The notes under the pieces are model-generated. The model ran no database searches, had not been told where the DNA came from, and saw only the letters and a list, made by a program, of their open reading frames with translations. This document shows, piece by piece, positions 20,889-35,194 of a stretch of 64,000 bases of DNA (position 1 is its first letter; each line of letters begins with the position of its first letter). Made by a program: the position numbers and the translations under genes. The DNA comes from Phototrophicaceae bacterium. GTDB lineage: Bacteria; Chloroflexota; Anaerolineae; Aggregatilineales; Phototrophicaceae. The DNA lies in contig OZ252218.1 of assembly GCA_965249085.1 (NCBI GenBank), positions 501,859 to 565,858 on the forward strand. Reading direction: 5' to 3'.

Positions 20889-21158
20889 TCAGACTATTGC
20901 GTACCAAGCCCGGCGCTTGCGCAATGAAACGCCCGCTTCCGCACCACTGCGCCGCGCTGTTCGTACGCGCCCGCGCGAATCGATATGAACCTGCCCCGCC
21001 TTCTGCAACCTCTCGAATTCTTCCGGCGTGATCGCCGGGGCGGGTTCGCCACCCAGGCGCTCCAGCCGATCTCCCAAATCGTCGGCCGACGCACCCTCAG
21101 GTGAATCGCTCATGTTTTCGTCCAGGCTATCGTTCGGATTCTTATCTTGATCGCTCAT
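20889..21158 (-). CDS. Small hypothetical protein (acidic N-terminus, basic C-terminus)
   Basis: ATG 21158 preceded by GAGGAAAGAG gives MSDQDKNPNDSLDENMSD.... No recognisable domain. Confidence 0.4.
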   Translation of the reverse strand: MSDQDKNPNDSLDENMSDSPEGASADDLGDRLERLGGEPAPAITPEEFERLQKAGQVHIDSRGRVRTARRSGAEAGVSLRKRRAWYAIV

Positions 21159-21438
21159 CTCTTTCCTCGGTTGTCGCGCCCTGAGGCGATACGCAGTTGT
21201 TCGACTCAAACGTTCCGCGCTTGCCACTACCAATACATAGTTTAGTCTATAGACGCGGACTTTGCCAAGTTCAATTCATTGCGCATTGTCATTCGCACGT
21301 ACGTAAGGCTGCCAGCGGTCGCGAGAAACCTCGCTTGCGTCTGTGTGGCTCGGGCGGTTGCGCTCTGCTCTGTAATACGCAGTTGCGGACGAAAAGTCGT
21401 ACTAAGTGCCGAGCGACTGTCACCTTATGACAAAGCGA

Positions 21439-22221
21439 TCAACCAAACTGTCCCCTTGCCAGACCCTGATAGCATTGCAGCGCGCGCTCGACTACCGTAT
21501 CAAAATCGTCCAAGTCTCGGAGATCGTCGTAGGCGACGTAGAGGCCCGTGTACGGTTCGGAGATCGCTTGCGCCGGTACTTTCAGCGGAACCTGGATATA
21601 ACCGGTCGGCTCTGACCAGGCATAGGCATAAATGTAGGGTCTATCCAGACCCGGGCTAAAAGGCGCGAATCCGAAAGCTATCTGCGGGTCGCTGTGCTCG
21701 TTGGCACCGCCGCTCGGAAACCAGATGAAGGCCAGGTCGAAGTGATGCGGCCAAAGCACGATCGGCGTCATGAAGCCGCTCAGTTTGCCGCGAAATCTCG
21801 CCAATGCGCCGTATACGGCATTTAGCGTCTGCAAGTATTCTGCTGCCATTGCCGGCTCAATTTCAAACGCGGAATCGTGCGTAATATGTTTCATGGACGG
21901 ATTGATGTTGTAGCCGCAGTCGCCGGAGATTGTCAGCAATCGTCGCATGAGTGACATCTGGGAATGATCACTGACATCGAAGGCGAATACCGTGTTATCG
22001 CCGCGGACAAAGCGCAGTTGCAGGTCGGCAAAGTCAAAGTGAAGCACACCGCCGCAGCGCATCCTGGTTGTCGATATGCCCGTGGCCGTCACGTCAAGAC
22101 TGAAATGCATGTCATTGGGCAATGGGTCTGAGCAAGCCACGCGAATCGCGCCGACAACCTGCGCGATCTGATGCATTGCGTCACGCGTCGATTCCCAATT
22201 TATCAATGTCGCTAGCGCCAT
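21439..22221 (-). CDS. Conserved hypothetical protein, DUF5996-like
   Basis: Its layout resembles DUF5996 (N-terminal W..T...MH.IAQVVGAIR, central FDF...L, C-terminal F.GK.S....LWPHHFDLAFIWFSG). The family assignment is from memory only. Confidence 0.45.
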   Translation of the reverse strand: MALATLINWESTRDAMHQIAQVVGAIRVACSDPLPNDMHFSLDVTATGISTTRMRCGGVLHFDFADLQLRFVRGDNTVFAFDVSDHSQMSLMRRLLTISGDCGYNINPSMKHITHDSAFEIEPAMAAEYLQTLNAVYGALARFRGKLSGFMTPIVLWPHHFDLAFIWFPSGGANEHSDPQIAFGFAPFSPGLDRPYIYAYAWSEPTGYIQVPLKVPAQAISEPYTGLYVAYDDLRDLDDFDTVVERALQCYQGLARGQFG

Positions 22222-22493
22222 TTCGCCATTCCTCCGAACTTGTACTCTCGATAGTGCTCTTGACCGTACTTCCTTATTATTAATTGTGACTTGTAAATAT
22301 TAGGATCTGCTAAGCTCACGCTAAGCATTGCTACACTCTGCGCTAAGAAATCCAAGCCGAAGTGCTCCGTCTTCCAAATCATTGTACACTGTGTATCAAA
22401 ATCCAGGGCAGAATTGGAGAAAGCTGTTCAATGATCAATCGCCGATCCTATGATACAACCTATGGGGCTTTCATTCCTGAGGAGATCAGCTTG

Positions 22494-23690
22494 ATGAATC
22501 GTTATCTGTCCAAGAGCGTGAAAAATCTGCGACCATCCGGCATTCGGCGTTATTTCGACATCGCCGCCACCATGACGGATGTGGTAACGCTCGGCATCGG
22601 CGAACCGGATTTCGTGACACCGCCGCACATCGCGGCAGCCGGCCAACAGAGCTTGCGCGATGGACACACTGGTTATACCTCAAATGCGGGGATTTTCGAA
22701 TTGCGGGCGGCGATTGCCAATCTGATTGAGCGCCGATATGGAATTCGTTATGAACCTGAAAATGAAGTACTCGTCACAGTGGGAGTCAGTGAGGCGCTCT
22801 TTCTCGCATTGAAAGTCCTGCTAGATCCGGGTGATGAAGTGCTGGTGGTCGAGCCTTGTTTTGTCGCCAATCCCGCATTGGTTGAGACTGCCGGCGGTGT
22901 TCCGGTCTCAGTACCTACGTCGTCAGCAAACGACTTTCAAGTCACGGCGGAAGCTCTCAAAGCGCGAATCACGCCGCGGACCAAAGCAATCTTACTGAGC
23001 TATCCCAGCAACCCGACCGGTGCCATATTGACGCGCCAGCATCTATTGCAGGTGGCGGCCGTCGCCGAGGCACATGATCTCGTCGTGATATCGGACGAGA
23101 TTTACGAACGGTTGGTCTATGGAATCGAGCATATTAACTTCGCGACGCTGCCCGGAATGTTTGAGCGCACTATCGTACTGAGCGGCATGAGCAAGTCCTA
23201 CGCGATGACGGGTTGGCGAATCGGTTACGTCACGGCGCCGCGCTCCTTCAGCGAAGCGATGTACAAGATCCATCAGTACCTGATTATGTCAGCGCCGACA
23301 ATGGGACAGCACGCCGCATTGGAAGCAATATGCCAGGGCGAAGACGATGTCGAAGCGATGCGGCAATGTTATGATCGACGCCGGCGGCTGATCGTTGATG
23401 GCTTCAATCGGCTTGGCCTGACCTGTTTCGAACCCCGCGGCGCATTTTATGCCTTTCCTAGTATCACGATCACCGGCATGGATGACGAGTCGTTCTGCGA
23501 AGAGTTGCTTCAAGAAGAACGCCTGGCCTTAATCCCGGGCAGTGCATTTGGCGCCAGCGGTCAAGGTTTTGTCCGGGCCAGCTATGCCACCAGTGAAGAA
23601 ACGATCATCGAGGCGCTGAACAGGTTGGAACGATTCCTGGTGACGCGCGGCGTTGTGTCGCGCGCGAGTGAAACGTTACTAGTGACGTAA
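22494..23690 (+). CDS. Class I/II pyridoxal-phosphate aminotransferase (aspartate/aromatic type)
   Basis: MNRYLSKSVKNLRPSGIRRYFDIA..., the PLP-lysine context SGMSKSYAMTGWRIGY, and NPTG. ATG 22494 lies behind GAGGAG. Confidence 0.85.
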   Translation: MNRYLSKSVKNLRPSGIRRYFDIAATMTDVVTLGIGEPDFVTPPHIAAAGQQSLRDGHTGYTSNAGIFELRAAIANLIERRYGIRYEPENEVLVTVGVSEALFLALKVLLDPGDEVLVVEPCFVANPALVETAGGVPVSVPTSSANDFQVTAEALKARITPRTKAILLSYPSNPTGAILTRQHLLQVAAVAEAHDLVVISDEIYERLVYGIEHINFATLPGMFERTIVLSGMSKSYAMTGWRIGYVTAPRSFSEAMYKIHQYLIMSAPTMGQHAALEAICQGEDDVEAMRQCYDRRRRLIVDGFNRLGLTCFEPRGAFYAFPSITITGMDDESFCEELLQEERLALIPGSAFGASGQGFVRASYATSEETIIEALNRLERFLVTRGVVSRASETLLVT

Positions 23691-23721
23691 TTGCGAATTC
23701 ATGGAATATGGTTTGCCACCG

Positions 23722-23747
23722 CCCCGGTCTAGATGCCGGGGTTTTTC
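23722..23747 (+). terminator. Rho-independent terminator after the aminotransferase gene
   Basis: CCCCGG (23722-23727) pairs with CCGGGG (23736-23741) and is followed by TTTTT. Confidence 0.65.
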
Positions 23748-24080
23748 TATTCTCAAAACGATCGCGACAATTCACATGGCTTCGCATCCTCGCATTGCAA
23801 GTCTGATATTCTTCCGCCAGACAAAATGTCTCGCCGGTTGAGGCGGAAATTGTTGCTCTCCAACCCATAGATGTGCCATCATTATCGTATGCTTGGCGTG
23901 AGGCGCCGTGTTGCAGTCGGCAAGTAACCCCTACGTTTGTGAGCGCCGATCAACTGACAAGGGGCTGCGGTGGTGTATATGGTAAGATTTCAGTTTGTTA
24001 CGTGCCATATGCACACTTGCGCCTGAGAACTTTTGTGCTAAGTTAGATTCCGTATTCGATTTCTGCACGGGAAATTCAAG

Positions 24081-25538
24081 ATGGGCGAGTGGAAAACGGT
24101 CATCGGCCTGGAAGTGCACGCCGAGATGGAAACCGAAAGCAAGATGTTCAGCAGCTGTCCGGTGGTCGACCGCGTCGAAGCGGATCCCAACTCAGCCGTT
24201 GATCCCCTGTCCCTCGGCTTGCCCGGCACTTTGCCGGTGATCAACATGCAGGCGATGGAATTCGGCATCATGGTCGGCCTCGCGCTCAACTGCGAGATTC
24301 CGCCTGTCAACCAGTTCGCGCGCAAGAATTACTTTTACCCCGACCTGCCCAAGGGTTATCAGATCAGCCAATATGACCGGCCGCTGGCTATCAACGGCTA
24401 CATTGACATTGAGCTTGAGGAAGGCGTCGCGAAGCGGATCCGCGTGCGCCGCGCCCACATGGAAGAGGACACGGGTAAACTCACGCATGTCATGGGCGGC
24501 AGCCTGGTCGACTACAATCGCGCCGGCGTGCCGCTGCTGGAAATCGTCTCCGAGCCGGATATCGCCAGCGCCGAAGAGGCGGAATCCTATGCGCGCAAGT
24601 TGCGCTCGATTCTGCGTTACCTCGGTGTCAACAGTGGCGACATGTCGAAAGGCGTTCTGCGCTTCGAAGCGAATGTCAGCGTGATGCACGAGAGCGATAC
24701 CCAGCTGCGGGAGCGCACCGAGATCAAGAATCTCAACAGTATCCGAAACATGGGCAAAGCCATCGACTATGAAGTTCAGCGACAGATCAAGCTCTATGGT
24801 CAGGGCGAGACGGTCAAGCCGGCCACCTTGGGCTGGGACGAGACGGCACAGAAGATAACCGTGCAGCGCTACAAAGAACGCGCTGACGAGTATCGCTATT
24901 TCCCCGAGCCGGACTTGCCAATTGTTGAAGTCAGCCGTGAATGGGTTGACGAGATCGCCGCCGAGCTGCCCGCCCTGCCCGACCTGCTGCGGCAGCGCTT
25001 CGTCGATGATATGGGCTTGAGCGCTTACGACGCCGGCGTGCTGACTGCGGAACGCACGGTCGCAGATTATTTCCAGGCTGTCGTTTCCGAAGGCGTTGAC
25101 GTCAAATTGGCGGCCAATTGGCTGACTTCGGATCTATTCCGAATGCTGAACGCCAACGAACTTGAGCGCGAAACCATCGATTCGATTCCGATATCGGCCG
25201 CCTCCTTCGCCAACCTGCTCAAGCTGGTAGAGAGTGGCGCGATCAACCAGAGCACGGCGCGCAAAACTGTCCTGCCGGAAATGTGGGATACCGGCGCGGA
25301 TGCCCGGGAAATCGTCGACCGAAAGGGCTTGGCGCAAATCTCCAACCCGGACCTGATCGGCGAGAAAGTGGACAACGTATTGGCCGAAAATTCGGACATG
25401 GTTGGGCGATGGCTCGCCGGCAACGACAAAGTGATCAATGCCATTTTCGGCCGGATCATGGGCGAGATGCGCGGCAAGGGCGACCCCGCGATCGTCCGCC
25501 GTATCTTGCAGGAACAACTCGAAAGCATGAAAGAATAG
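24081..25538 (+). CDS. gatB: Asp-tRNA(Asn)/Glu-tRNA(Gln) amidotransferase subunit B
   Basis: WKTVIGLEVHAEMETESKMFSSC..., NYFYPDLPKGYQISQ and a C-terminal GatB/YqeY domain. Confidence 0.92.
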   Translation: MGEWKTVIGLEVHAEMETESKMFSSCPVVDRVEADPNSAVDPLSLGLPGTLPVINMQAMEFGIMVGLALNCEIPPVNQFARKNYFYPDLPKGYQISQYDRPLAINGYIDIELEEGVAKRIRVRRAHMEEDTGKLTHVMGGSLVDYNRAGVPLLEIVSEPDIASAEEAESYARKLRSILRYLGVNSGDMSKGVLRFEANVSVMHESDTQLRERTEIKNLNSIRNMGKAIDYEVQRQIKLYGQGETVKPATLGWDETAQKITVQRYKERADEYRYFPEPDLPIVEVSREWVDEIAAELPALPDLLRQRFVDDMGLSAYDAGVLTAERTVADYFQAVVSEGVDVKLAANWLTSDLFRMLNANELERETIDSIPISAASFANLLKLVESGAINQSTARKTVLPEMWDTGADAREIVDRKGLAQISNPDLIGEKVDNVLAENSDMVGRWLAGNDKVINAIFGRIMGEMRGKGDPAIVRRILQEQLESMKE

Positions 25539-25564
25539 CCAATAGACTTTGGGAGAAAATCAAG

Positions 25565-26026
25565 ATGACATGGCATCAAACAATCATTGTAGGCAACCTG
25601 GGCCGGGATCCCGAACTGCGATACATGCAGAACGGACGCGCCGTCTGCAACTTCAGCGTCGCCGTCTCGGAAAGTTGGCGCGATCGTCAGACCGAGGAAC
25701 GGCGCGAGAAAACCACCTGGTATCGCGTGGCCGTTTGGGGCGCGCAAGCCGAAACCTGCAACACCTATCTGTCATCCGGGCGGAAAGTCATGGTGATTGG
25801 CAATGTGCAGGCGCGCGGCTACCTGAACAACAATGGCGAGGCGGCGGCGTCTCTCGATCTCACCGCGCGTGACGTGCGCTTCCTCGGCAGTCGCGACGAA
25901 GGACAGCAAGGCGGCGGCAGGAGTGGCGGCGGTCAGCAGGGTGGACAGCGCGACAGCGCGCCTCGTGATGACCGCGCCTCAAACTGGGCTGAACCACCGG
26001 GTTCGGTCGATGACATTCCCTTTTAG
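25565..26026 (+). CDS. ssb: Single-stranded DNA-binding protein
   Basis: MTWHQTIIVGNLGRDPELRYMQNGRAVCNFSVAVSE...TTWYRVAVWG is an OB fold. It has a Gly/Gln-rich linker and the canonical acidic tip ...DDIPF. The upstream part of track ORF 25283-26026 overlaps gatB and was rejected. Confidence 0.92.
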   Translation: MTWHQTIIVGNLGRDPELRYMQNGRAVCNFSVAVSESWRDRQTEERREKTTWYRVAVWGAQAETCNTYLSSGRKVMVIGNVQARGYLNNNGEAAASLDLTARDVRFLGSRDEGQQGGGRSGGGQQGGQRDSAPRDDRASNWAEPPGSVDDIPF

Positions 26027-26074
26027 TTTTGAGCGTCCGCGTCTAGTTTTGGCTGATCGAAAACGGCGCTGCCC

Positions 26075-26821
26075 GTGTCCAACTTCAGCGTCGATCTAGA
26101 GGGAAAGACTGCCCTGATAACAGGCGCGGGGGCCGGTAGCGGTCGCGCAATCGCGCTTGCCCTGGCTTCAAGCGGCGCCAAGGTTGCGGCGGCCGATCTC
26201 AATATCGAGCGCGCCGAAAGCGCTGCCGAGCAGATCGAGCGCGGCGGCGGCACTGCGATCGCGCTACATGCCGATGTCTCCAATCGCTTCCAGGTCGCCA
26301 ACATGATCGAGCGTACGCGCGATACATATGGTGGAATCCAGATACTGGTCAACGCTGCCAGCGCCTTCCGTGCCGAACCCATGCTCCAGATCGATGAATG
26401 GGATTGGCGGCGTCAACTTGAAGTCAATGTCACGGGCACATTCTTCTGCATGCAATTGGTCGGCCGGGTGATGGCGGACGAAGGCGGCGGGGCAATCATC
26501 AACCTGATTTCCGCCGATGCCTTGCGTTCAACGATTCCGGCCGGTATCGGCTACATCACCGGCGGAGCGGGCGTCATCGGCATGACGCGCCAGGCCGCGC
26601 GCGAATTGGCGGAGGATAGCGTAAGAGTCAATGCGATCGCGGGAGGGAACCTGCGCGATGTCGATGCGTTGATCACCGCATCGCCTTCCAGCCTGCTCGA
26701 ACACGGCGGGACGTCGCAGGATATCGCTGGCGCCGCGCTTTTCCTCTGTTCCGACGCCGCCCAGCACATTACCGGTCAAATACTCGTGGTTGATGGCGGT
26801 CGCTCGATCGCAGCTGAATAG
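26075..26821 (+). CDS. Short-chain dehydrogenase/reductase (SDR) family protein with an atypical active-site motif
   Basis: TGAGAGSGRAIA Rossmann motif, NAAS, and a FabG-like length. The Y-x-x-x-K position reads Y-I-T-G-G. GTG start at 26075. Confidence 0.8.
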   Translation: MSNFSVDLEGKTALITGAGAGSGRAIALALASSGAKVAAADLNIERAESAAEQIERGGGTAIALHADVSNRFQVANMIERTRDTYGGIQILVNAASAFRAEPMLQIDEWDWRRQLEVNVTGTFFCMQLVGRVMADEGGGAIINLISADALRSTIPAGIGYITGGAGVIGMTRQAARELAEDSVRVNAIAGGNLRDVDALITASPSSLLEHGGTSQDIAGAALFLCSDAAQHITGQILVVDGGRSIAAE

Positions 26822-26862
26822 TCCGGCAGCGCAGCACAGCGATCCGTTTCCCCAAATACCGT

Positions 26863-27294
26863 TCACTCGCCGGTCGAGCCAAAACCACCCGCGCCGCGCT
26901 CGGACTCTGAGAGATCTTCAAGCGTTTCCACGTATTCAACTGATTCAGTACATGCCGGCGCCACCAGCAGCTGCGCAATCTTCTGACCGGCGCGAATCTG
27001 AAACGTGTCAGCACCCAGGTTCACGACGAGAATCTTCAGTTCTCCGCGATAGGCACTGTCGATCACGCCTGCAAGCGTATGCAATCCGGCCGCTGCCACA
27101 CTTGAACGGTCTTTCACCAGACCAACAAAACCTTGCGGGATTTCCAGGTGCAAGCCGGTTTCGACCAGTGCGCGCTCTTGTGAAGCAAGCGCGCAATCGT
27201 CGATGGCATACAAATCGTAGCCGGCATCGCCGTCGCGGGGCGCGGCGAATTCGACGTCCAGGGCTCTCATTTTCACGTTGCGATACACGCGCAT
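26863..27294 (-). CDS. dut: dUTP diphosphatase
   Basis: GDAGYDLYA, GLVKDRSS, GVIDSAYRGEL and the C-terminal RGAGGFGSTG are the five dUTPase motifs. Confidence 0.9.
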   Translation of the reverse strand: MRVYRNVKMRALDVEFAAPRDGDAGYDLYAIDDCALASQERALVETGLHLEIPQGFVGLVKDRSSVAAAGLHTLAGVIDSAYRGELKILVVNLGADTFQIRAGQKIAQLLVAPACTESVEYVETLEDLSESERGAGGFGSTGE

Positions 27295-27303
27295 AGCGGC
27301 GAT

Positions 27304-27822
27304 TTACCTGGTATCAATCAGTCGGAAATATTCGTCAGCCAGCGCTTGCCAGGGCGCCAGATCCCAATAACGCCGCGCCGCGCCCGACGGGGAAGGCGCC
27401 ACGTAGACGCGCGTCCGTCCCACGAACTGATCCTGCCAGCCATATGTGACAGCGGCCGCTGCCGATTTGCGGGTCCAGGCGCGGCAGGCAGTCTTGCTGG
27501 TAAATGCCAGAATCTGCGGTTGAAAGCAGCGAATCTTGTCGCTGAGACAATCTGCCCCGAAATCGGCCTCCGTCAGCGTATGATCGGCGCCAGCGCTATA
27601 CTTTGCCACATCGGTCAGCCCGATACTCAGGCGCAGCAAGGCGCGAAATTCGGTCGGCGCGAACCGCCGAGGCGTCAAACCTGTCAAATGAAGCGTAGGC
27701 CAGAAAGCATTCGTTGGGTTGGCGTAATAGGCGCCTTCCCGCGCCGATACCACGCTGGCCGCCGTCCCACAGAAGACCAGGATCAAACCGCACTCCAGGA
27801 CATCGGGCAGTACCTCAATCAT
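27304..27822 (-). CDS. Uracil-DNA glycosylase superfamily protein (Mug/TDG-like)
   Basis: LILVFCGTAASVVSAREGAYYANPTNAFWPTL is the UDG-superfamily motif 1 region. ATG 27822 overlaps the MBL stop (ATGATTGA). Confidence 0.65.
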   Translation of the reverse strand: MIEVLPDVLECGLILVFCGTAASVVSAREGAYYANPTNAFWPTLHLTGLTPRRFAPTEFRALLRLSIGLTDVAKYSAGADHTLTEADFGADCLSDKIRCFQPQILAFTSKTACRAWTRKSAAAAVTYGWQDQFVGRTRVYVAPSPSGAARRYWDLAPWQALADEYFRLIDTR

Positions 27823-28594
27823 GCAATTCCAGCCCACTATCGACTACGATCAAGTTTTTCTGATGGGTCTCATGGTAGAATTCCTCGAGTTTGGGCGGAA
27901 GCACGAACTCGAGGTTGCCGACCAAAGCCCTCAAATAGGCCACCGTCGCCTCAAGACATTCGCGACCCGGCACGCTGCCATGAGACGGAATCGCAAGCTC
28001 CAGTTCGTCCTTGCCCGCCCACAGCTCGAGCGAGGCAAGCCAACTGCTCAGCAGCCGGGAGCTGTTGACAACCGGCAATGGCGTTTCGATGGCGTCGCCG
28101 CCGAGCAACACGCCCCACTCCGGAATCCAGCCGACAATGCAGTCGATCGTGTGCCCCGGCAAATGATGCAATTCCAGCGTGACGCCGCCCAAATCCAGCG
28201 AAAGGCGAGCGGTAAAGGTGAGATTCGGCGGCACGAGATCGACGCTATCCCACCTGCCTGATTCCGCCAACTGCTTGCGGCGCAGCAGTATGGGAATATC
28301 GTCGTCGAAACGCTTCAGACACTCAGCATGCGCGATGATATTCAGGGGCTTCCGCGCCAAGCCGGCAGTTCCCCAAATATGATCCCAGTCGCCATGACTG
28401 TAAACCACTTGAAAGGGCTTGTCGCCTAACAGCGGTGTCAGAAGCTGCATGTCGTTGGGATGGGTCAATGTGTCCCAGACTACCGCTTGCTTGTCGCCGA
28501 TGACGACAACCGCGCGCACCTGCATGTCAGGCGCTGACACATGCAAAGTCCATAGATTGGGGCTGACTTCTTGAAGCTGCTGCATCTCGATCAC
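27815..28594 (-). CDS. MBL-fold metallo-hydrolase
   Basis: The VVYSHGDWDHIWG (HxDxDH-type) motif and later His/Asp ligands (HHLPGHT). Confidence 0.8.
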   Translation of the reverse strand: MIEMQQLQEVSPNLWTLHVSAPDMQVRAVVVIGDKQAVVWDTLTHPNDMQLLTPLLGDKPFQVVYSHGDWDHIWGTAGLARKPLNIIAHAECLKRFDDDIPILLRRKQLAESGRWDSVDLVPPNLTFTARLSLDLGGVTLELHHLPGHTIDCIVGWIPEWGVLLGGDAIETPLPVVNSSRLLSSWLASLELWAGKDELELAIPSHGSVPGRECLEATVAYLRALVGNLEFVLPPKLEEFYHETHQKNLIVVDSGLELHD

Positions 28595-28661
28595 CCGGAA
28601 GATCTACCAGCCAGGTTGTGGACTCCACCGCTGGCGACGGGCGCTTGAGCCAAACCTGCGG

Positions 28662-29786
28662 TTACGTGCCTGATTTCACAATTACTTCGAGATCGGGCAG
28701 AAGACGGAAGCTGTCCACGACAGCAATGAGAGGCTGTTCAGCCGGACTAACCTCGAGCAGGTCCGCATTGAGGTCCTGAATGCGTAGGTTGGCGATGTGC
28801 AGACGATTATCGGTTCCAGCCAACATGACCGCCACGCCGCTCTCGGCAGCGCCGTCCAGCGTGGTCAGCACATAGGACGCCTTGTATCCGGTCGCGCCGG
28901 CAACGTCTACCGCTTCTACTGTCTGTGTTTCCACACCGCTACGCCAATTTTCGAGCCAGGCGGCAGCTTCGTCCTCGCTCGCTAACGCCACATCATAGGT
29001 TGCCACGCCGAGAATCGCGCCGTCGCCGGCGATTGTCGCGGGCAGCCCCTCAGCCGCGTCGGAAACCTCCCAGCCCTTGGGAAAACGCACCATATGCTTG
29101 TCAAGATTGTCAAAGTAGGCATCCCAGTCGAAAGGCGCATCGGCATAAATCGGCAGCGGTTCCACAGAATCGGACACGCCCCGCAGCAGGTACTTGAGCT
29201 GCTGTGGCGCATTCTCCGCGGTGACGACGCGCACGCTGTAAATGTCTCCATTTGCCAGCCGGGATTCTTGCCGGGCGATGAGATAGGACCGTCCGCGCCG
29301 CAGGTTGAAATCAATGCGAACGACGCCGCTGTCAGTCACTGAACGACCGGTTTCTTCCCAACTCGTGTAACCGCTCCAGGTGTGACCCAGCCAAGCTTTG
29401 TCGAGAAAGCCGCTCAAGGCGTCCGCGTCGCTGATGTCAGTGTAGTTCTTGTTGATCCGCACTTCCACCACGCTCAGCGCATCACTGTTGCTCAAGCCGG
29501 CGCGCAATTCATCCGCCGTATTGCTATCCGAAGCTGGCTCCCAACCGGTGGGCGCGCCGATGGTAAACAAGCCGGAACGATGCAAGTAGCGGCTGTCGAA
29601 ATCGATCGTTTCAATGTCAGGCGGCGCTGGCAGAGTCGGCTCCGGAAATGGAGTCGGCTGTGGCGAATCCTGCATGCTGCCTTGGCTCACCTGCCCGGAA
29701 AGCATCGGCAGGATCAAGCTGCCCACCATCGCGACTGTCATTACAATCCCGATGATGTAGGTTAAGGTCTTGGTTGTTTTATTCAT
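28662..29786 (-). CDS. Membrane-anchored hypothetical protein
   Basis: N-terminal TM LTYIIGIVMTVAMVGSLILPML followed by a Pro-rich spacer and an extracytoplasmic domain of about 300 aa. No domain recognised. Confidence 0.5.
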   Translation of the reverse strand: MNKTTKTLTYIIGIVMTVAMVGSLILPMLSGQVSQGSMQDSPQPTPFPEPTLPAPPDIETIDFDSRYLHRSGLFTIGAPTGWEPASDSNTADELRAGLSNSDALSVVEVRINKNYTDISDADALSGFLDKAWLGHTWSGYTSWEETGRSVTDSGVVRIDFNLRRGRSYLIARQESRLANGDIYSVRVVTAENAPQQLKYLLRGVSDSVEPLPIYADAPFDWDAYFDNLDKHMVRFPKGWEVSDAAEGLPATIAGDGAILGVATYDVALASEDEAAAWLENWRSGVETQTVEAVDVAGATGYKASYVLTTLDGAAESGVAVMLAGTDNRLHIANLRIQDLNADLLEVSPAEQPLIAVVDSFRLLPDLEVIVKSGT

Positions 29787-29919
29787 TCAGGAGCGGCTCC
29801 AGAAGCGCTGTCAAAACGCGGCCATCATACCGCAAAAGGCACACACTGTTAAGCAAGACTTTTTATCCCTATAATCCGTCGTTGGCAGAATCCCACAGGT
29901 TGGCGCCGGCAGCCCCCAC

Positions 29920-30993
29920 ATGAATCGCTCGCGGTCGCCGCGCGCCGCCATTATCATTGGACGGATGCAGGAGGATATCGAATTCATGCTGCCATCAAGC
30001 TTTGTGAGTCGTCCGCTTTCGCTGGATGATGCGGACCACTATACCAGCACCGTCAACGCGATAAGCGCCCAGATCGGCGTGGACGAACAGCTTCAGCCAG
30101 AAAGCGCGCTTCTCGAATGGCAGGAGCCGGCCTTTGATCTCGCCAGCTCGTCGTTGGGGTTTTTCGATGAAAAGGGACTGCTGGCCGCTTTTGCCACCTT
30201 CTGGGCGACGAACGAAATACCGGTGCGACCACACATCGAATGGGGCGTGCATCCAGACTATCTTGAAGCGGGGCTCGCGGAGCGCCTGCTGTGCTGGGCG
30301 GAAGACAAGTGCGGCGAAGTCCAGGAGCGCTGCCCGCCGGAAGCGCGCTTCACTTTGGGCTGTGGCGTTCGTACAGGACACGCCTTTGCCGAAAACGCGC
30401 TGGAGCAGGCCGGCTTCGTCGTTAGCCGCTTCTTCTACGATATGGAAATCCAGATGACGGCGCGACCGGAGCCGTCTCCTTTACCGGCGGGTTTCCGCAT
30501 GCGCCCGTATGACAGGGAACGCGATCTGCCCGTATTGGTCGATGTCTTGCGCGACTCGTTTTCGGATCACTTTGGCTATATGGAAGAACCCTTCGAGAAA
30601 GAGCTGGAGTTATTCCGTCACTGGATTAATGACAACCCGCACTTCGACCCCGATCTCTTGATTCTGCCGGCGGACGAATCAACCGGCGAGGTAGCCGGCT
30701 GTTTGATCGGGCTGACGCAGGATCGTGTAAAGGCGGAGGCCGGTTATATTGATGGGGTCGGCGTGCGCCGGGCATATCGGCGACGCGGCCTGGCTACGGC
30801 GATGCTCAAACGCAGCTTCGCTCAATTCTGGGATCGCGGGATGAAAACGGTGCGTTTGGATGTGGACGGCGAGAGCCTGACAAATGCGGTGGCGCTCTAT
30901 GAGCGGGTTGGGATGCAGGTGATTCAGCGCCACAGCGTCTACGAAAAGGTATTGCGCGATGGCGTCGAATTGGCGAAGGTGGCGCTGGAGTAA
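29920..30993 (+). CDS. Tandem-GNAT N-acetyltransferase (mycothiol-synthase-like architecture)
   Basis: The C-terminal lobe carries VGVRRAYRRRGLATAML. The start is ambiguous: ATG 29920, or ATG 29986 behind GGAGG. Confidence 0.7.
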   Translation: MNRSRSPRAAIIIGRMQEDIEFMLPSSFVSRPLSLDDADHYTSTVNAISAQIGVDEQLQPESALLEWQEPAFDLASSSLGFFDEKGLLAAFATFWATNEIPVRPHIEWGVHPDYLEAGLAERLLCWAEDKCGEVQERCPPEARFTLGCGVRTGHAFAENALEQAGFVVSRFFYDMEIQMTARPEPSPLPAGFRMRPYDRERDLPVLVDVLRDSFSDHFGYMEEPFEKELELFRHWINDNPHFDPDLLILPADESTGEVAGCLIGLTQDRVKAEAGYIDGVGVRRAYRRRGLATAMLKRSFAQFWDRGMKTVRLDVDGESLTNAVALYERVGMQVIQRHSVYEKVLRDGVELAKVALE

Positions 30994-31066
30994 CCATGAG
31001 CTGCGATGTTTCGCGCGTTTGGCTGGAATCGCCAGCACGCTACGACAACCGGTATAAAGTATCCAC

Positions 31067-31897
31067 ATGAGAACGCCCGCCGGCAAGTCAGACTACGCCG
31101 AAGTAAATGGCGCCCGGCTCTATTACGAAATTGCCGGCAGCGATACACCCCTGGTCATGATCCATGCCGGAATCGCTGATTCGCGCATGTGGGATCAAGA
31201 GTTTGAGCATTTCGCCAGCAGCCATCGAGTCTTGCGATTTGATATGCGCGGCTATGGCAAGAGCCTTCCGGTTCCTGGCGATTTCAATATTCTGGATGAC
31301 ATGACCGCGCTTCTTGCCGAGCTCAACATGATCGAACCGATCATACTCATGGGCTGCTCGATTGGCGCCGGGCTTGCGATAGAATTCGCACTGGCACAGC
31401 CGCAGCGCGTGCGCGCGCTTATACTGCTCGGCGGCTGCCCGGACGGCTTCGAGGCGGACGCGGGAAGCCCGGACGAACTGTTCGCCGAATCAGAACGAGC
31501 ATTTAACAATGGTGAACTGGATCGCGTCGCTGAACTCGATATCCAAATCTGGTTTGACGGTTACGGACGTACCAAGAACGATGTGGATGCCGAGACTCGG
31601 GCAAAGGCCTGTGAGATGGCGCGACTCGTGGCAGAACACGAGTTCAAGCATATTGGCAGCCACGTACGCAAGGCCATTGAGAGACCGGCTGCCGATCGGC
31701 TCAATGAGTTGTCAATGCCAAGCCTGATCGTCATTGGAGCCAATGATCTGCCCCTTCTTCTCCTTGCCGCGGACTACATGGTCGAATCTATGCCCAATGC
31801 GACAAGAGCGCTCATTGCCGATGCGGCGCACTTGCCCAACATGGAGCATCCGGCGCGTTTCCGGGCGGCGGTCGAGGCGTTTCTCGGCAGCGACTGA
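31067..31897 (+). CDS. Alpha/beta-fold hydrolase
   Basis: LVMIHAG, the nucleophile elbow GCSIGAG and a C-terminal AAHLPNMEHP. Confidence 0.8.
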   Translation: MRTPAGKSDYAEVNGARLYYEIAGSDTPLVMIHAGIADSRMWDQEFEHFASSHRVLRFDMRGYGKSLPVPGDFNILDDMTALLAELNMIEPIILMGCSIGAGLAIEFALAQPQRVRALILLGGCPDGFEADAGSPDELFAESERAFNNGELDRVAELDIQIWFDGYGRTKNDVDAETRAKACEMARLVAEHEFKHIGSHVRKAIERPAADRLNELSMPSLIVIGANDLPLLLLAADYMVESMPNATRALIADAAHLPNMEHPARFRAAVEAFLGSD

Positions 31898-31930
31898 GCG
31901 TCACAATTGCGCGACCGAGACTGATTGCTT

Positions 31931-32482
31931 ATGTCAGGCCAAGACAACGAAGACCGCTACGAAGATATCCTCAATAGAATCGCCCAACGTAATCCCTTTG
32001 GCAAAGCGCGCCCTGAGGCTAAACCGCAAACGCCGCAGGACCGCGCGCTCAATCTCGTCAACGCTTTTGACGCTCTCGCCCGGCTGTCGCGGGATGAATA
32101 CGAGCGCTACCTCTGTTACGGACCCAAATCATGCCGCGGATCGGCTTGGTCGGGGGCCGCAATCTGGTACCACCGCAAGGGATATCACGGCTATCAGACG
32201 CTCTATCTTCTCGGTGTCTGGGCGCATTACAGCGAAAGCGACATCGTGTTGACCGTCGGCATACGCCAACGGCCCTATCGCGCGCCGGTCTATGACGCCG
32301 GCGTTTATCGCGTCGCCATCAGGAATAATTTCCGCATCTATTACGATGATGCCGGCGGACCGCCGGGCGAATCTGATCGCCTGCTCTACCAATCGCGCTT
32401 CAAAGAAAAAGAGCGACTGTCACAGCGACAATCGCTGCGCGATATTCTGGGAGCCTGGCGTCGGGAGATTGAATCCGGCTAG
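31931..32482 (+). CDS. Hypothetical protein ending in ...EIESG, convergent with the E1 gene and overlapping it by 4 nt
   Basis: ORF with ATG at 31931 (the track start 31925 is a TTG). No domain recognised and the RBS is weak. Confidence 0.4.
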   Translation: MSGQDNEDRYEDILNRIAQRNPFGKARPEAKPQTPQDRALNLVNAFDALARLSRDEYERYLCYGPKSCRGSAWSGAAIWYHRKGYHGYQTLYLLGVWAHYSESDIVLTVGIRQRPYRAPVYDAGVYRVAIRNNFRIYYDDAGGPPGESDRLLYQSRFKEKERLSQRQSLRDILGAWRREIESG

Positions 32483-33402
32483 TCGTCTTCTTCGATGACG
32501 ATGTCCGTGGTCAATCCGGACGCCGCCAGATCGTCGAGCGAAATGCTGCCCGTGTCTTCCTGGGCAAGAATACTGACACTCTGCTTAAGTCGTTCGCCAC
32601 AGACCAAACAGTCGGGATCACGCGCGATCTCGATCCAGATGCCGGTATGCGGATCGCTTTCTTGCCCCTCGATAATGTCCATATATGTATTAGCAACAAT
32701 GAGGGTATTGGCCGGCATCTCCTCATGCGCGTTCGTGCCGCGCAAAAGCTCATTGATGATCAGATCCGTTTGAATGCCGGCCACCTTGGTCACGTTAACC
32801 CAAAGACCTGGCTCAGCCGCCAATGTACCTTCCTCCCGGATCATGCCGTAGTCCAGATCGCCGACCGGGTTCATCGAAACCTTGGCGCCCTCGCGCGTTG
32901 CTTCCGACCAGCAGGCGTAACAGGGACCAATAAGTGGTCTGATGATGACGTGATCGCCGCCTTCGCCCCGTTCATAGACGCCGGCGTAGGATGCGCTCAC
33001 GCGTTTTTCCAGGCATTTCTCGTTGATGGCGTATTTCACCTGTTCATGGTCCACCGCCACGACAAGAATATCCACCTCTTCCAGGCAATCCCAGTGATCC
33101 TCGATCAGTCCTTCGCGCACCTCTATTTGCGTATCCTCGTTGCGGTGGCGGATCAAATCGGCGACTGCCGTCGCCTTGTTCGTTCCGACATATCGGGAGT
33201 CAGCCACGTGCCGCGTCACGTTGCCGCGTTCCAGCAGATCCCCATCGACCAGGACAAACTTCCCGACGCCGCTCATCGCCAGGCTCAAGGCCACGAATCC
33301 GCCGCCTGAACCCAAGCCGATCACGCCCACCTTTTTCCGGGCGAGCCGTTCCAGATTATCCGAGCCAATCAGCCTTTCGACACGTTCCCAAATGCTAGTC
33401 AT
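32479..33402 (-). CDS. E1-like ThiF/MoeB-family adenylyltransferase
   Basis: KKVGVIGLGSGGGFVALSLAMSGVGKFVLVDGDLLERGNVTRH, AVDHE, and two CxxC pairs (GPCYACW, DCLVCG). ATG 33402 lies 1 nt after the JAB stop at 33404-33406. Confidence 0.85.
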   Translation of the reverse strand: MTSIWERVERLIGSDNLERLARKKVGVIGLGSGGGFVALSLAMSGVGKFVLVDGDLLERGNVTRHVADSRYVGTNKATAVADLIRHRNEDTQIEVREGLIEDHWDCLEEVDILVVAVDHEQVKYAINEKCLEKRVSASYAGVYERGEGGDHVIIRPLIGPCYACWSEATREGAKVSMNPVGDLDYGMIREEGTLAAEPGLWVNVTKVAGIQTDLIINELLRGTNAHEEMPANTLIVANTYMDIIEGQESDPHTGIWIEIARDPDCLVCGERLKQSVSILAQEDTGSISLDDLAASGLTTDIVIEEDD

Positions 33403-33403
33403 T

Positions 33404-34675
33404 TCACCGTGCCTCTTCTTCTGTCGGCTCATCATCAATGATAGGATTGCTATCGTTCAGACAGTCATCTGCCGAGCGCTCGGAATCTGCTTCCATTTGG
33501 TTGGCGGAGTCAGGTTCGTCTCCACCTTCGTCCATCAATTCGTCGTCCAGGAAAACCGGGATTGCCACCGTGGTCGGCTGGCGCAAACCCCGCGCGACTT
33601 CAATTGCGATGACGTAATCAATGAGGTATTTGTCGTTTGACCACTGCCATTCCGGCGGGTCGGGAATTGGCGTTGCAATTTCCCACAAAGATTGAAAGGT
33701 CGCGACCGGATCCATCAGGTCCAAACCATCCAAAAACGGCGCTTCGAATGCCTGCGGCGCGCGTTCAGGATAGTCGTGCTGCGTGACAAACAAGAGGAAG
33801 TTCGACGCGCCTTGCCGGATTGTAAAAAAACAAAATTCCAAGGGCACTTCGCCATCGCATTCATAGAACAAGGTGCGAACCAGCAAGCCATCATCGGCCA
33901 TCGCCAATGTTTCGCTGGTGAGCCGGTCCGGCAGCACAACGTGCCAGCCGTATTTCATCATCTGGGGCAGCTGCTCGGCCGACACCACTTGCGGATGCAC
34001 TGGCTGGAAAACGCGGACATCGCGATGGATATACCACCAGTCGACCCGCATATCTGTGCCGTTGTCCATCGGTACGGTGATGTAATTCACTGACAATTCC
34101 GATTCGCCGATGATCGACGCATGCCCGACTGTCACGATCGGCACCAGCAGGAATTCCATTGCCAATTCTTCATCATCGAGCCAGCCGAGCGCTGTCATAA
34201 GATCGCCGTGGCTGGGCTGGATCATTGAGCCGGGCTGCTTGTGCCAATCGCCAAGATAACGCAGCGGCACATCAAAGCGGTCGGGCAAGGCAGCAGAACC
34301 GCGGTGCCTCTCCCGATGAAAATGCCAATTCTCCTGCAGCCACCAGATGGTCTCATCCTGCGAGGCATCGCCCTGCTGAAACGTATGGGAGCGCCTCACG
34401 GCCGTCTCATCGGGCGAAATCGTATCGAGCACATAGATGGTGGGCAAACCCTCCGGTGTATCGTCTTCAACGATAAAGCCCACCATGGCTTCACCTGTCT
34501 CATCGGCCATGAATTGGCTCGCGGCCGAGAGCATCCTGGCTACCGCCCGCCGCGACAAAACCAGGTTGGGCACGATACCGCGTGAAATCATTGCCATCCC
34601 CCGCAAGCGCTTCCTGATGTGTTCGATTTCCAACTGCATGAGCTTGAGAAACTCGCGCTCATCCATGGTCCGCAT
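33404..34675 (-). CDS. JAB/MPN-domain protein with a variant JAMM motif and an unassigned C-terminal region of about 200 aa
   Basis: GEAMVGFIV (Glu region), then WHKQPGSMIQPSHGDL with exact H-x-H-x7-S-x2-D spacing but Gln at the second His (CAG at 34237..34235). ATG 34675 lies 2 nt after the E2 stop. Confidence 0.75.
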   Translation of the reverse strand: MRTMDEREFLKLMQLEIEHIRKRLRGMAMISRGIVPNLVLSRRAVARMLSAASQFMADETGEAMVGFIVEDDTPEGLPTIYVLDTISPDETAVRRSHTFQQGDASQDETIWWLQENWHFHRERHRGSAALPDRFDVPLRYLGDWHKQPGSMIQPSHGDLMTALGWLDDEELAMEFLLVPIVTVGHASIIGESELSVNYITVPMDNGTDMRVDWWYIHRDVRVFQPVHPQVVSAEQLPQMMKYGWHVVLPDRLTSETLAMADDGLLVRTLFYECDGEVPLEFCFFTIRQGASNFLLFVTQHDYPERAPQAFEAPFLDGLDLMDPVATFQSLWEIATPIPDPPEWQWSNDKYLIDYVIAIEVARGLRQPTTVAIPVFLDDELMDEGGDEPDSANQMEADSERSADDCLNDSNPIIDDEPTEEEAR

Positions 34676-34677
34676 GA

Positions 34678-35151
34678 TCAACGTCTCCGGCGGCGTGGCA
34701 AGGGTGAACTGGCTTTGATGCGCTCCTCGATGCCGGGCCAATTCCCGGTTGAGCGCCAGGTGTAATAGGCGTAGAGCCATTGAATCGCCCAGCCGCCTAC
34801 GGTCACCGCCGTCGATTTCGAGGGGTTCCAGCCGTATTGTTCGCCATCTTTCGGGTTAAAGAGGCAGAGCTGCCCATCCTCGTATTGATGTTTTTCGCTG
34901 TAGATTCGCGGTTTGATGCAATAGGCTTCGGCCGGGCGGTTGGGATATTCTTTCGGATAGACGATCTTCAAGCTGTGATATGGTGACTCGAGAATGCTCA
35001 TGCTGATCTCGACAATGCCTTGCCAATAGAGCAAGCCACCGAATGGGGGAACCACCAACGCGAAAGTGTTGCCAAAGGTGGCTTTCATCGCCTCCACTTC
35101 CCAGATGAGACGGGACGAGACATGTCTGCGCGACCCCCACCAATTGGACAT
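34678..35151 (-). CDS. Prokaryotic E2 / UBC-fold ubiquitin-conjugating-like protein
   Basis: LYWQGIVEI...HSLKIVYPKEYPNRPAEAY...KHQYEDGQLCLFNP mirrors the eukaryotic UBC core: a YPxxPP flap, then an H-x4-G-x-L-C-L active-site loop. The Cys codon is at 34866..34864. ATG 35151 lies 9 nt after GGAG; the track start 35160 is a GTG. Confidence 0.8.
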   Translation of the reverse strand: MSNWWGSRRHVSSRLIWEVEAMKATFGNTFALVVPPFGGLLYWQGIVEISMSILESPYHSLKIVYPKEYPNRPAEAYCIKPRIYSEKHQYEDGQLCLFNPKDGEQYGWNPSKSTAVTVGGWAIQWLYAYYTWRSTGNWPGIEERIKASSPLPRRRRR

Positions 35152-35194
35152 AAGCTGCACTCCGCACCACGGTTATCCCAATCTTAACAGCTTA

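Follow-up and report, generated by a model that had tools for sequence, protein, structure and literature searches.

Can a JAMM-type metalloprotease function when the second histidine of its metal site is replaced by glutamine, and on what would such a protein act? This question is raised by a gene on the minus strand (33404..34675) of a 64,000-nucleotide stretch of the genome of a Phototrophicaceae bacterium (GCA_965249085.1, contig OZ252218.1, positions 501,859 to 565,858), hereafter the window. The gene encodes a JAB/MPN protein that lacks the second metal-ligand His of the H-x-H pattern and has H145-K-Q147 instead. It lies in the middle of an operon that also encodes an E2-like and an E1-like protein and that is followed, in most genera, by a gene for a small basic protein (SM). 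Judging from alignments, codons and phylogeny, the change to HxQ is ancient, fixed and under selection, and it happened a single time, in an HxH ancestor at the root of the Phototrophicaceae.

A fixed glutamine in the JAMM motif

The gene consists of the following parts:
33404..34675, minus strand: open reading frame (ORF) of the JAB/MPN protein with its C-terminal domain (CTD), 423 amino acids by translation
33980..34579, minus strand: MPN/JAB domain, about residues 33-232, after an N-terminal helix (residues 6-31); placed by Foldseek, PADLOC and the family profile
34499..34501, minus strand: codon GAG of Glu59, the catalytic Glu of the JAMM motif, invariant in homologue alignments
34202..34243, minus strand: JAMM-type motif H145-K-Q147-P-G-S-M-I-Q-P-S155-H-G-D158, from translation and alignments
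34235..34237, minus strand: codon CAG of Gln147, replacing the second metal-ligand His, from alignment, codon counts and tree
33581..33970, minus strand: CTD, about residues 236-365, tentatively a Cys-less UBC/UEV/RWD-like fold, from a CTD-only AlphaFold2 (AF2) model and hhalign
33755..33772, minus strand: YPxxxP motif Y302-P303-E-R-A-P307, with Y302 and P303 at least 90% conserved in both clades of the family tree
33407..33580, minus strand: acidic tail, residues 366-423, net charge -18, predicted disordered and poorly conserved

The ORF start at 34675 agrees with the lengths of homologues, the closest of which (P0001) also has 423 amino acids and is 98% identical at 100% coverage. An alignment-based AF2 model of the full-length protein (predicted local distance difference test score, pLDDT, 88.3; predicted template modelling score, pTM, 0.80) was compared with the PDB using Foldseek and matched MPN proteins, including BRCC36 (6gvw_B, 1.4e-8), the Caldiarchaeum Rpn11 homologue (6fnn), CSN5, Rpn11 and Cap3 (9ild). 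PADLOC JAB models also match the protein (down to 1.4e-7), and the best match of the family profile among PDB sequences is Cap3 (9ild_A, E 4.4e-4), in an alignment that spans the motif. A Pfam scan of the full protein and a phmmer search of PDB sequences gave no match. The model confirms the MPN fold. With the fold backed by Foldseek and motif columns that do not vary in the family, the JAMM motif goes far beyond chance.

The original prediction, made from the sequence of the window, had described a JAB/MPN protein with exact JAMM spacing, a CAG codon at 34237..34235 that puts Gln in place of the second ligand His, and an acidic C-terminal tail. All of these are borne out by the model, the translation and the codon map. 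The spacing is H-x-Q-x7-S-x2-D (H145 CAC, 34243..34241; S155 AGC, 34213..34211; D158 GAT, 34204..34202), and S155 and D158 at the 7-residue spacing are invariant. Two of the proposed boundaries are corrected here. The interval 34243..34202, given for a motif starting with W-H-K-Q, does cover H145 to D158, and Trp144 precedes it at 34246..34244. The additional C-terminal module, placed at about residues 225-423, does exist and begins at about residue 236; RVDWWYIHRDVRVFQP (about residues 207-222), assigned to the additional region, belongs to the last strands of the MPN domain in the AF2 model.

Gln147 is invariant in the query and 120 close homologues (121/121; 66-98% identity). HxQ is found in 74 of 79 loci, a set drawn from a single genome for each genus of the family and supplemented with other loci. 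Codon 147 was tabulated over 130 distinct loci and is CAG in 97, CAA in 30 and CAC/CAT in 3, giving Gln in 127/130. Every one of these Gln codons is a single transversion away from His, and because synonymous turnover has nevertheless kept Gln, selection acts on Gln itself.

An exhaustive search of 1.8 billion representative proteins for homologues of the JAB protein returned only 127 clusters, and by this measure the family is small. Its distant members (~38% identity or less) have the canonical WHKHPG. In a maximum likelihood tree of 126 sequences, the HxH proteins form a paraphyletic grade of 38 rows, and a single H-to-Q change maps to the base of a clade of 88 rows that includes all sampled Phototrophicaceae. 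A single reversion to His (L068 and P0145) is nested within this clade. Only H or Q ever occurs at position 147, with no third residue. Conservation of E59, H145, S155 and D158 reaches at least 90% in the Q clade and in the H grade alike, the decay at multiple positions that characterises MPN-minus proteins is not seen, and the catalytic residues are kept at family-level divergence down to 33% identity. Ser155 is retained across both the AGY and TCN codon families.

Residue 58 (codon 34502..34504), next to Glu59, is the sole position that tracks the split in the tree: 91% of the Q clade have Asp there, and 66% of the H grade have Thr. Asp58 was fixed after the H-to-Q switch, because early Q branches carry L, P, N or E at this position, and it was rejected as an obligatory compensating change on these grounds. 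His156 (PSHGD) was rejected as a replacement ligand because it occurs only in the query's genus and at two other loci; most genera have Gly there.

When modelled by itself, the CTD reached a pLDDT of 94.6. According to DSSP, the model contains a helix, a four-strand meander, a loop with the YPxxxP flap, and two helices; in the flap Tyr302-Pro303 is invariant and Pro307 nearly so. An hhalign comparison of the CTD with the operon's own E2 (P=2.3e-4, probability 44%, 59 columns; two control pairs, 0.12-0.14) gave an alignment that runs from helix 1 (RLxxExxxL) to DYPxxxPxA[FY]. The second-best PDB match of the whole-family profile is a ubiquitin-conjugating enzyme (3we5_A, E 0.16), in the same region of the CTD and in the same register. 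The only conserved Cys is in strand 2 (PLExC). Because no Cys follows the flap (nor does any His), the domain would be UEV/RWD-like rather than an active E2. Searches with the CTD alone are why this assignment is tentative: Foldseek with the CTD-only model found nothing significant in the PDB (best E 0.7, no UBC match) and the CTD-only profile retrieved only noise from PDB sequences. A Pfam scan of the CTD gave no match. We tentatively describe the CTD as a Cys-less UBC/UEV/RWD-like module. Inactive RWD-like E2 domains occur in bacterial E1/E2/JAB operons, where they are predicted to bind a ubiquitin-like moiety (Iyer et al. 2006, PMC1779556). In the acidic tail that follows the CTD, pLDDT is below 50 from residue 392, and the tail differs among the homologues in the CTD alignment.

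Operon partners and a small basic protein

Three further genes on the same strand belong to the proposed system:
34678..35160, minus strand: E2/UBC-like gene with catalytic Cys99 (TGC, 34866..34864) in HQYEDGQLCLF; PADLOC E2 model, 7e-15
32479..33402, minus strand: ThiF-type E1 of 307 amino acids with a single adenylation domain; Pfam ThiF (5.8e-28) and a 73-sequence alignment
20889..21158, minus strand: SM, 89 amino acids, with an acidic N-terminal part, a basic C-terminal part of 56 residues up to ...GVSLRKRRAWY86, and the tail AIV; a candidate modifier or substrate, found by tblastn

E2, JAB and E1 are separate genes with JAB in the middle, and there is no E2-E1 fusion. The ATG of the JAB gene lies 2 nt past the E2 stop, and its own stop lies 1 nt before the ATG of E1. 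All three operon proteins are matched by PADLOC models (E2, JAB and E1-E2). The E2 of relatives carries PF26395 (E2-CBASS), and E2 identity across most of the family is 65-93%. In an alignment of 73 E1 sequences two CxxC pairs (161/164 and 265/268) are invariant and no conserved Cys lies between them, in the crossover loop, where there is a conserved LDYG Tyr (Tyr185). The E1 also ends in an acidic tail (net -8 over the last 40 residues, 32482..32601).

Upstream of E2 there are only short ORFs, with no candidate of at least 60 amino acids for a ubiquitin-like protein (Ubl). No beta-grasp ORF of the BilA type was seen adjoining the operon, and the operon contains no Ubl-E2, JAB-E1 or E2-E1 fusion and no DUF6527 gene. 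Genes for a CD-NTase, an effector or a beta-grasp protein were absent among the neighbours in the window and the called genes of the relatives' loci examined; no targeted search was made elsewhere. The operon neighbours are housekeeping genes.

In most genera the SM gene directly follows E1 as an unannotated fourth gene. It lies ~11 kb from E1 in the query's genus, and the copy in the window was found by tblastn with the relatives' post-E1 gene. This copy is 72% identical to that of a relative (L005) and is followed by the same NUDIX gene as in relatives. The N-terminal part of SM varies among relatives and is acidic or Pro-rich, and a highly conserved basic C-terminal segment follows (RLERLGGEPAPvITPEEFaRLQkAGQVHIDsRGRVRTaRR...GVSLRKRRAWY), with a net charge of +7 over the last 30 conserved residues (20901..20990). 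Conservation ends at ...AWY (Tyr86 codon, 20903..20901). Among 50 SM genes, the tail beyond this point has 0 (4 genes), 1 (9), 2 (22), 3 (10) or 5-9 residues (4), and one gene (L076) reads on for 53 residues into PCMT-like sequence. SM has 1,448 homologues and no Pfam domain, and there are only 'hypothetical' names among the matches listed.

The distant HxH-type operons likewise have a small gene after E1. The small protein of one of them (L007:7958-8371) has two tandem repeats, each ending in KPRTWG (...AEVTLNKPRTWG), and that of another (L163) has ARLRARRAW-A plus 19 residues. The residue after Trp is Gly or Ala in the distant HxH relatives and Tyr in the family, a shift that may be linked to the remodelled active site. 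Both arrangements fit a precursor that is processed, and, as a side observation, the tandem repeats recall a poly-modifier precursor.

The JAB gene was found in 119/121 sampled Phototrophicaceae genomes, nearly always as a single match (33-76% identity), including 85/85 high-quality genomes and 42/42 genera. In other families of the class it was found in 0/196 genomes from 56 families. The SM gene has the same distribution in the family (119/121 genomes, 85/85 of high quality, 42/42 genera), and the same two incomplete genomes lack both SM and JAB. The JAB phylogeny tracks the genera. The Phototrophicaceae (Aggregatilineales, Anaerolineae, Chloroflexota) inherit the system vertically and carry it as a single-copy part of their core gene set. 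Based on the gene linkage, the exact co-occurrence, and the conserved end with a variable tail, which are marks of a processed modifier precursor, we infer that SM is the cargo of this system and is conjugated via its C-terminus.

The ~11 kb between E1 and the SM gene (21234..32478) is occupied by unrelated genes, among which motifs or Pfam identify DUF5996, an aminotransferase, gatB, ssb, SDR, dUTPase, a UDG-family glycosylase, an MBL-fold protein, GNAT and an alpha/beta hydrolase. According to their NCBI locus tags, relatives have 12-15 genes between JAB and the SM gene. A convergent ORF of 185 amino acids (31925..32482, plus strand) overlaps the E1 stop and has no Pfam match. It has 53-70% identity to its counterparts, directly follows E1 in 57/120 loci, and all inspected matches come from close relatives of the query. 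This ORF fills the slot held by the small-protein gene in other genera and marks a rearrangement rather than a core component. It ends in Gly and was considered as a Ubl, which is unlikely given its presence after E1 in only 57/120 loci and the close relationship of the inspected matches. Between the SM and NUDIX genes, 45/120 related loci have a gene for a PCMT-like methyltransferase of ~400 amino acids (L005:8366-9586), which is absent from the locus in the window.

Possible activity of a His-Gln-Asp site

We give about an even chance to the JAB protein being a still-active, metal-dependent JAMM enzyme with a His-Gln-Asp site that trims or removes SM. From the sequence features, folds, operon, conservation and phylogeny described above we infer a scheme in which metal binding, cleavage, the role of SM as cargo and every chemical step are predictions. 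There would be four components: an E2, a JAB fused to a Cys-less E2-like domain, a ThiF-type E1 and the small, low-complexity, basic SM. His145, Gln147 (through its amide oxygen) and Asp158 would coordinate the metal, and Glu59 and Ser155 would play their usual JAMM roles. JAB would cut off the few variable residues at the end of SM, leaving ...RKRRAWY exposed, and/or detach SM from its conjugates, and the UEV/RWD-like CTD would hold SM or dock E2 or E1. The E1 could then adenylate the C-terminus of SM and, because it has no crossover-loop Cys, pass SM directly to Cys99 of the E2. The acidic tails of the JAB protein and the E1 may contact the basic end of SM, with a possible role in electrostatic docking or autoinhibition.

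Two observations tilt the evidence towards retained function: Glu, His, Ser and Asp do not vary, and position 147 is occupied by H or Q alone. This is unlike the typical decay of MPN-minus proteins. Also in favour of activity, 45/50 SM genes encode a tail of 1-9 residues that would need removal. A natural His-to-Gln change in a zinc ligand is documented in the B3 lactamases LRA-12 and GOB (Q-H-H site), where Gln116-Oe1 binds Zn and high activity is retained (PMC5531557). These enzymes have an unrelated fold and a di-zinc site, and they serve only as a mechanistic analogy for an active His-Gln-Asp site.

Several points weigh against this reading. Gln is a poor zinc ligand, and the MPN domain of Prp8, which has a variant JAMM motif, is not known to bind metal or to be catalytic and acts as a ubiquitin binder. 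No compensating metal ligand was found in the JAB protein, where Asp58 and His156 were considered. The organism's own genome has two canonical Prok-JAB genes elsewhere (C1:4012774-4014116 and C1:4185882-4186217), one of which adjoins a second ThiF-like gene in the usual pairing of the sulfur-carrier type, and these canonical proteins could trim SM in trans. The evidence for conjugation of SM through its C-terminus consists of gene linkage and the conservation pattern, and a C-terminal Tyr would be unusual for an E1. In BRCC36, H94Q+H96Q leads to the loss of Zn, activity and active-site order, though both His were altered there (PMC4579573), and loss of a ligand is the classical mark of MPN-minus proteins (PMC9313428).

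Some of these points fit a pseudo-peptidase, which we consider quite possible, if somewhat short of an even chance. The HxQ MPN domain would neither bind metal nor cleave but keep its substrate groove. Its role, shared with the UEV-like domain, would be that of a receptor or scaffold, either holding the C-terminus of SM, or a conjugate of it, ready for E1 and E2, or protecting conjugates. The missing His ligand and the behaviour of BRCC36 with a QSQ site are as this predicts, and fusion to a second non-catalytic-looking module, the Cys-less E2-like CTD, suits an adaptor, all the more as the inactive RWD-like domains of PMC1779556 are predicted to bind a Ub-like moiety. Canonical JABs are available elsewhere in the genome, and the four SM genes that end exactly at Tyr need no trimming. 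A pseudo-peptidase is harder to reconcile with Glu59, His145, Ser155 and Asp158 remaining invariant down to 33% identity, Ser even across codon families, with a position 147 that takes Q or H only and has reverted to H once, and with the tail encoded by most SM genes.

In MPN-minus pseudo-deubiquitinases (Rpn8, CSN6, Abraxas/KIAA0157 and Prp8) a zinc-ligand His is missing too, but these proteins have lost several catalytic residues and most pair with an MPN+ partner, whereas in the present protein one residue differs and there is no paralogue in the operon. In KIAA0157, for instance, the Glu is replaced by Asn and the Ser by Thr (PMC4579573), and a pseudoenzyme with substrate affinity intact is what has been proposed for Prp8 (PMC3431379). 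The HxQ motif is a natural experiment on Gln as a JAMM ligand, and it bears on the practice of calling pseudo-deubiquitinases from sequence.

A more far-reaching proposal is that the Phototrophicaceae carry out housekeeping E1/E2 tagging with a small, basic, probably disordered tag that is not a Ubl, matured by the HxQ (His-Gln-Asp) JAMM peptidase, activated at its C-terminal Tyr by an E1 that lacks the catalytic Cys, and transferred directly to the Cys of E2. We put this forward tentatively, and rate it as somewhat unlikely. If true, it would be a functional counterpart of pupylation built from ubiquitin-type enzymes.

Relation to known bacterial conjugation systems

The characterised bacterial E1/E2/JAB systems (CBASS type II, Bil and Bub) are sparse, linked to defence against phages or to stress, and use beta-grasp Ubls except in CBASS. 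Sparse distribution has been noted for the operons of all three (PMC11601603). Judged by its genes, the present system is of this kind yet belongs to none of them.

The likeness to CBASS type II lies in the E2 of relatives, which falls in the E2-CBASS Pfam family, and in the JAB motif region, for which Cap3 (9ild_A) is the best solved match. In CBASS the conjugated C-terminus need not come from a beta-grasp Ubl (PMC11601603). Unlike in CBASS type II, where Cap2 is an E2-E1 protein, E2 and E1 are separate here, the JAB is of the HxQ type with an extra E2-like domain, the examined loci showed neither a CD-NTase nor an effector gene, and the genes are core and vertically inherited in one family rather than sporadic.

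Bil systems (BilA Ubl, BilB E2, BilC JAB and BilD E1; types I and II) share separate E2, JAB and E1 genes in the same order, and the Bil JAB is described as pre-processing the C-terminus of the modifier (PMC10557695; PMC11601603). In contrast to Bil, there is no beta-grasp BilA here, the partner being the small low-complexity basic protein encoded after E1; the E1 is a 307-residue, single-domain ThiF type without a crossover-loop Cys, and the distribution is not like that of a defence island.

With Bub (formerly 6E/DUF6527) the system shares a minimal E1 of the homodimer type, with a Cys-less crossover loop and a conserved Tyr (Y370 in BubCD, as described in PMC11601596; here Tyr185), and Bub operons also contain RWD-like inactive E2 domains (Iyer et al. 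2006, PMC1779556). Bub is described as comprising Ubl-E2 and JAB-E1 fusions (type I) or E2-E1 (type II), with a DUF6527 serine protease and oxyester intermediates (PMC11601596). The present E2, by comparison, keeps Cys99, the JAB is fused to a pseudo-E2, and the operon has no DUF6527 gene. The JAB of Bub has a normal HxH zinc site.

These likenesses invite a view of the operon as a sporadically distributed anti-phage module, similar in kind to CBASS type II or Bil, whose Ubl, CD-NTase or effector has been lost or is hidden, and the PADLOC matches to all three proteins, PF26395 in the relatives' E2, and Cap3 as the closest solved JAB by sequence would agree with it. We regard it as improbable given a single-copy gene in 119/121 family genomes and 42/42 genera whose phylogeny tracks the genera, its housekeeping neighbours, and the lack of any gene called as a CD-NTase, effector or beta-grasp protein in the relatives' loci that were examined, other loci having had no targeted search. 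The distribution lowers the case for such a module, and a core system could still act in defence.

What sets the system apart is the combination of a family-wide core distribution, a candidate cargo that is not a Ubl, an E1 without a catalytic Cys, and a fixed HxQ JAB that toggled back to HxH once. The E2-JAB-E1 and SM system may represent a new kind of bacterial protein tagging, and it can be put directly to the test as a candidate for a bacterial housekeeping pathway of protein conjugation that is new.

It is very improbable that the C-terminal region of the JAB protein is itself a beta-grasp modifier, as had been suggested for residues 225-423, or that the acidic tail with its GG (MDEGGDEPDS) is the conjugated end. 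In the confident CTD model the elements are ordered alpha-beta4-alpha-alpha, with a YPxxxP flap; this is not beta-grasp, and the weak profile likeness of the domain is to E2/UBC. The tail, GG included, is not conserved, and GG was rejected as a processing site for this reason. Finally, although CAG is one third-position change from CAC/CAT, the suggestion of an error in sequencing or assembly, or of a variant private to one strain in an otherwise ordinary HxH JAB, has a practically negligible chance of being right: Gln is conserved in more than 120 independent assemblies, which makes an assembly error untenable, and it is fixed family-wide through both CAG and CAA, in 127/130 distinct loci.

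In the distant HxH-type operons, a gene directly upstream of E2 encodes a transmembrane (TM)-anchored protein of ~220-290 amino acids that has no Pfam match and a conserved C-terminal ...DDLL (L002:3461-5275, L007:4637-5416, L161:2056-2919, L162:714-1412, L164:814-1485). Within the family, such TM proteins (~260 amino acids) were rejected as members of the operon, being linked to it in 0/120 loci. Phototrophicaceae have the TM-anchored protein as a tandem pair elsewhere in the genome, in 61/61 sampled genomes (C1:1757064-1758670 in the organism's own genome), and it may be another partner or target of the system, encoded away from the operon.

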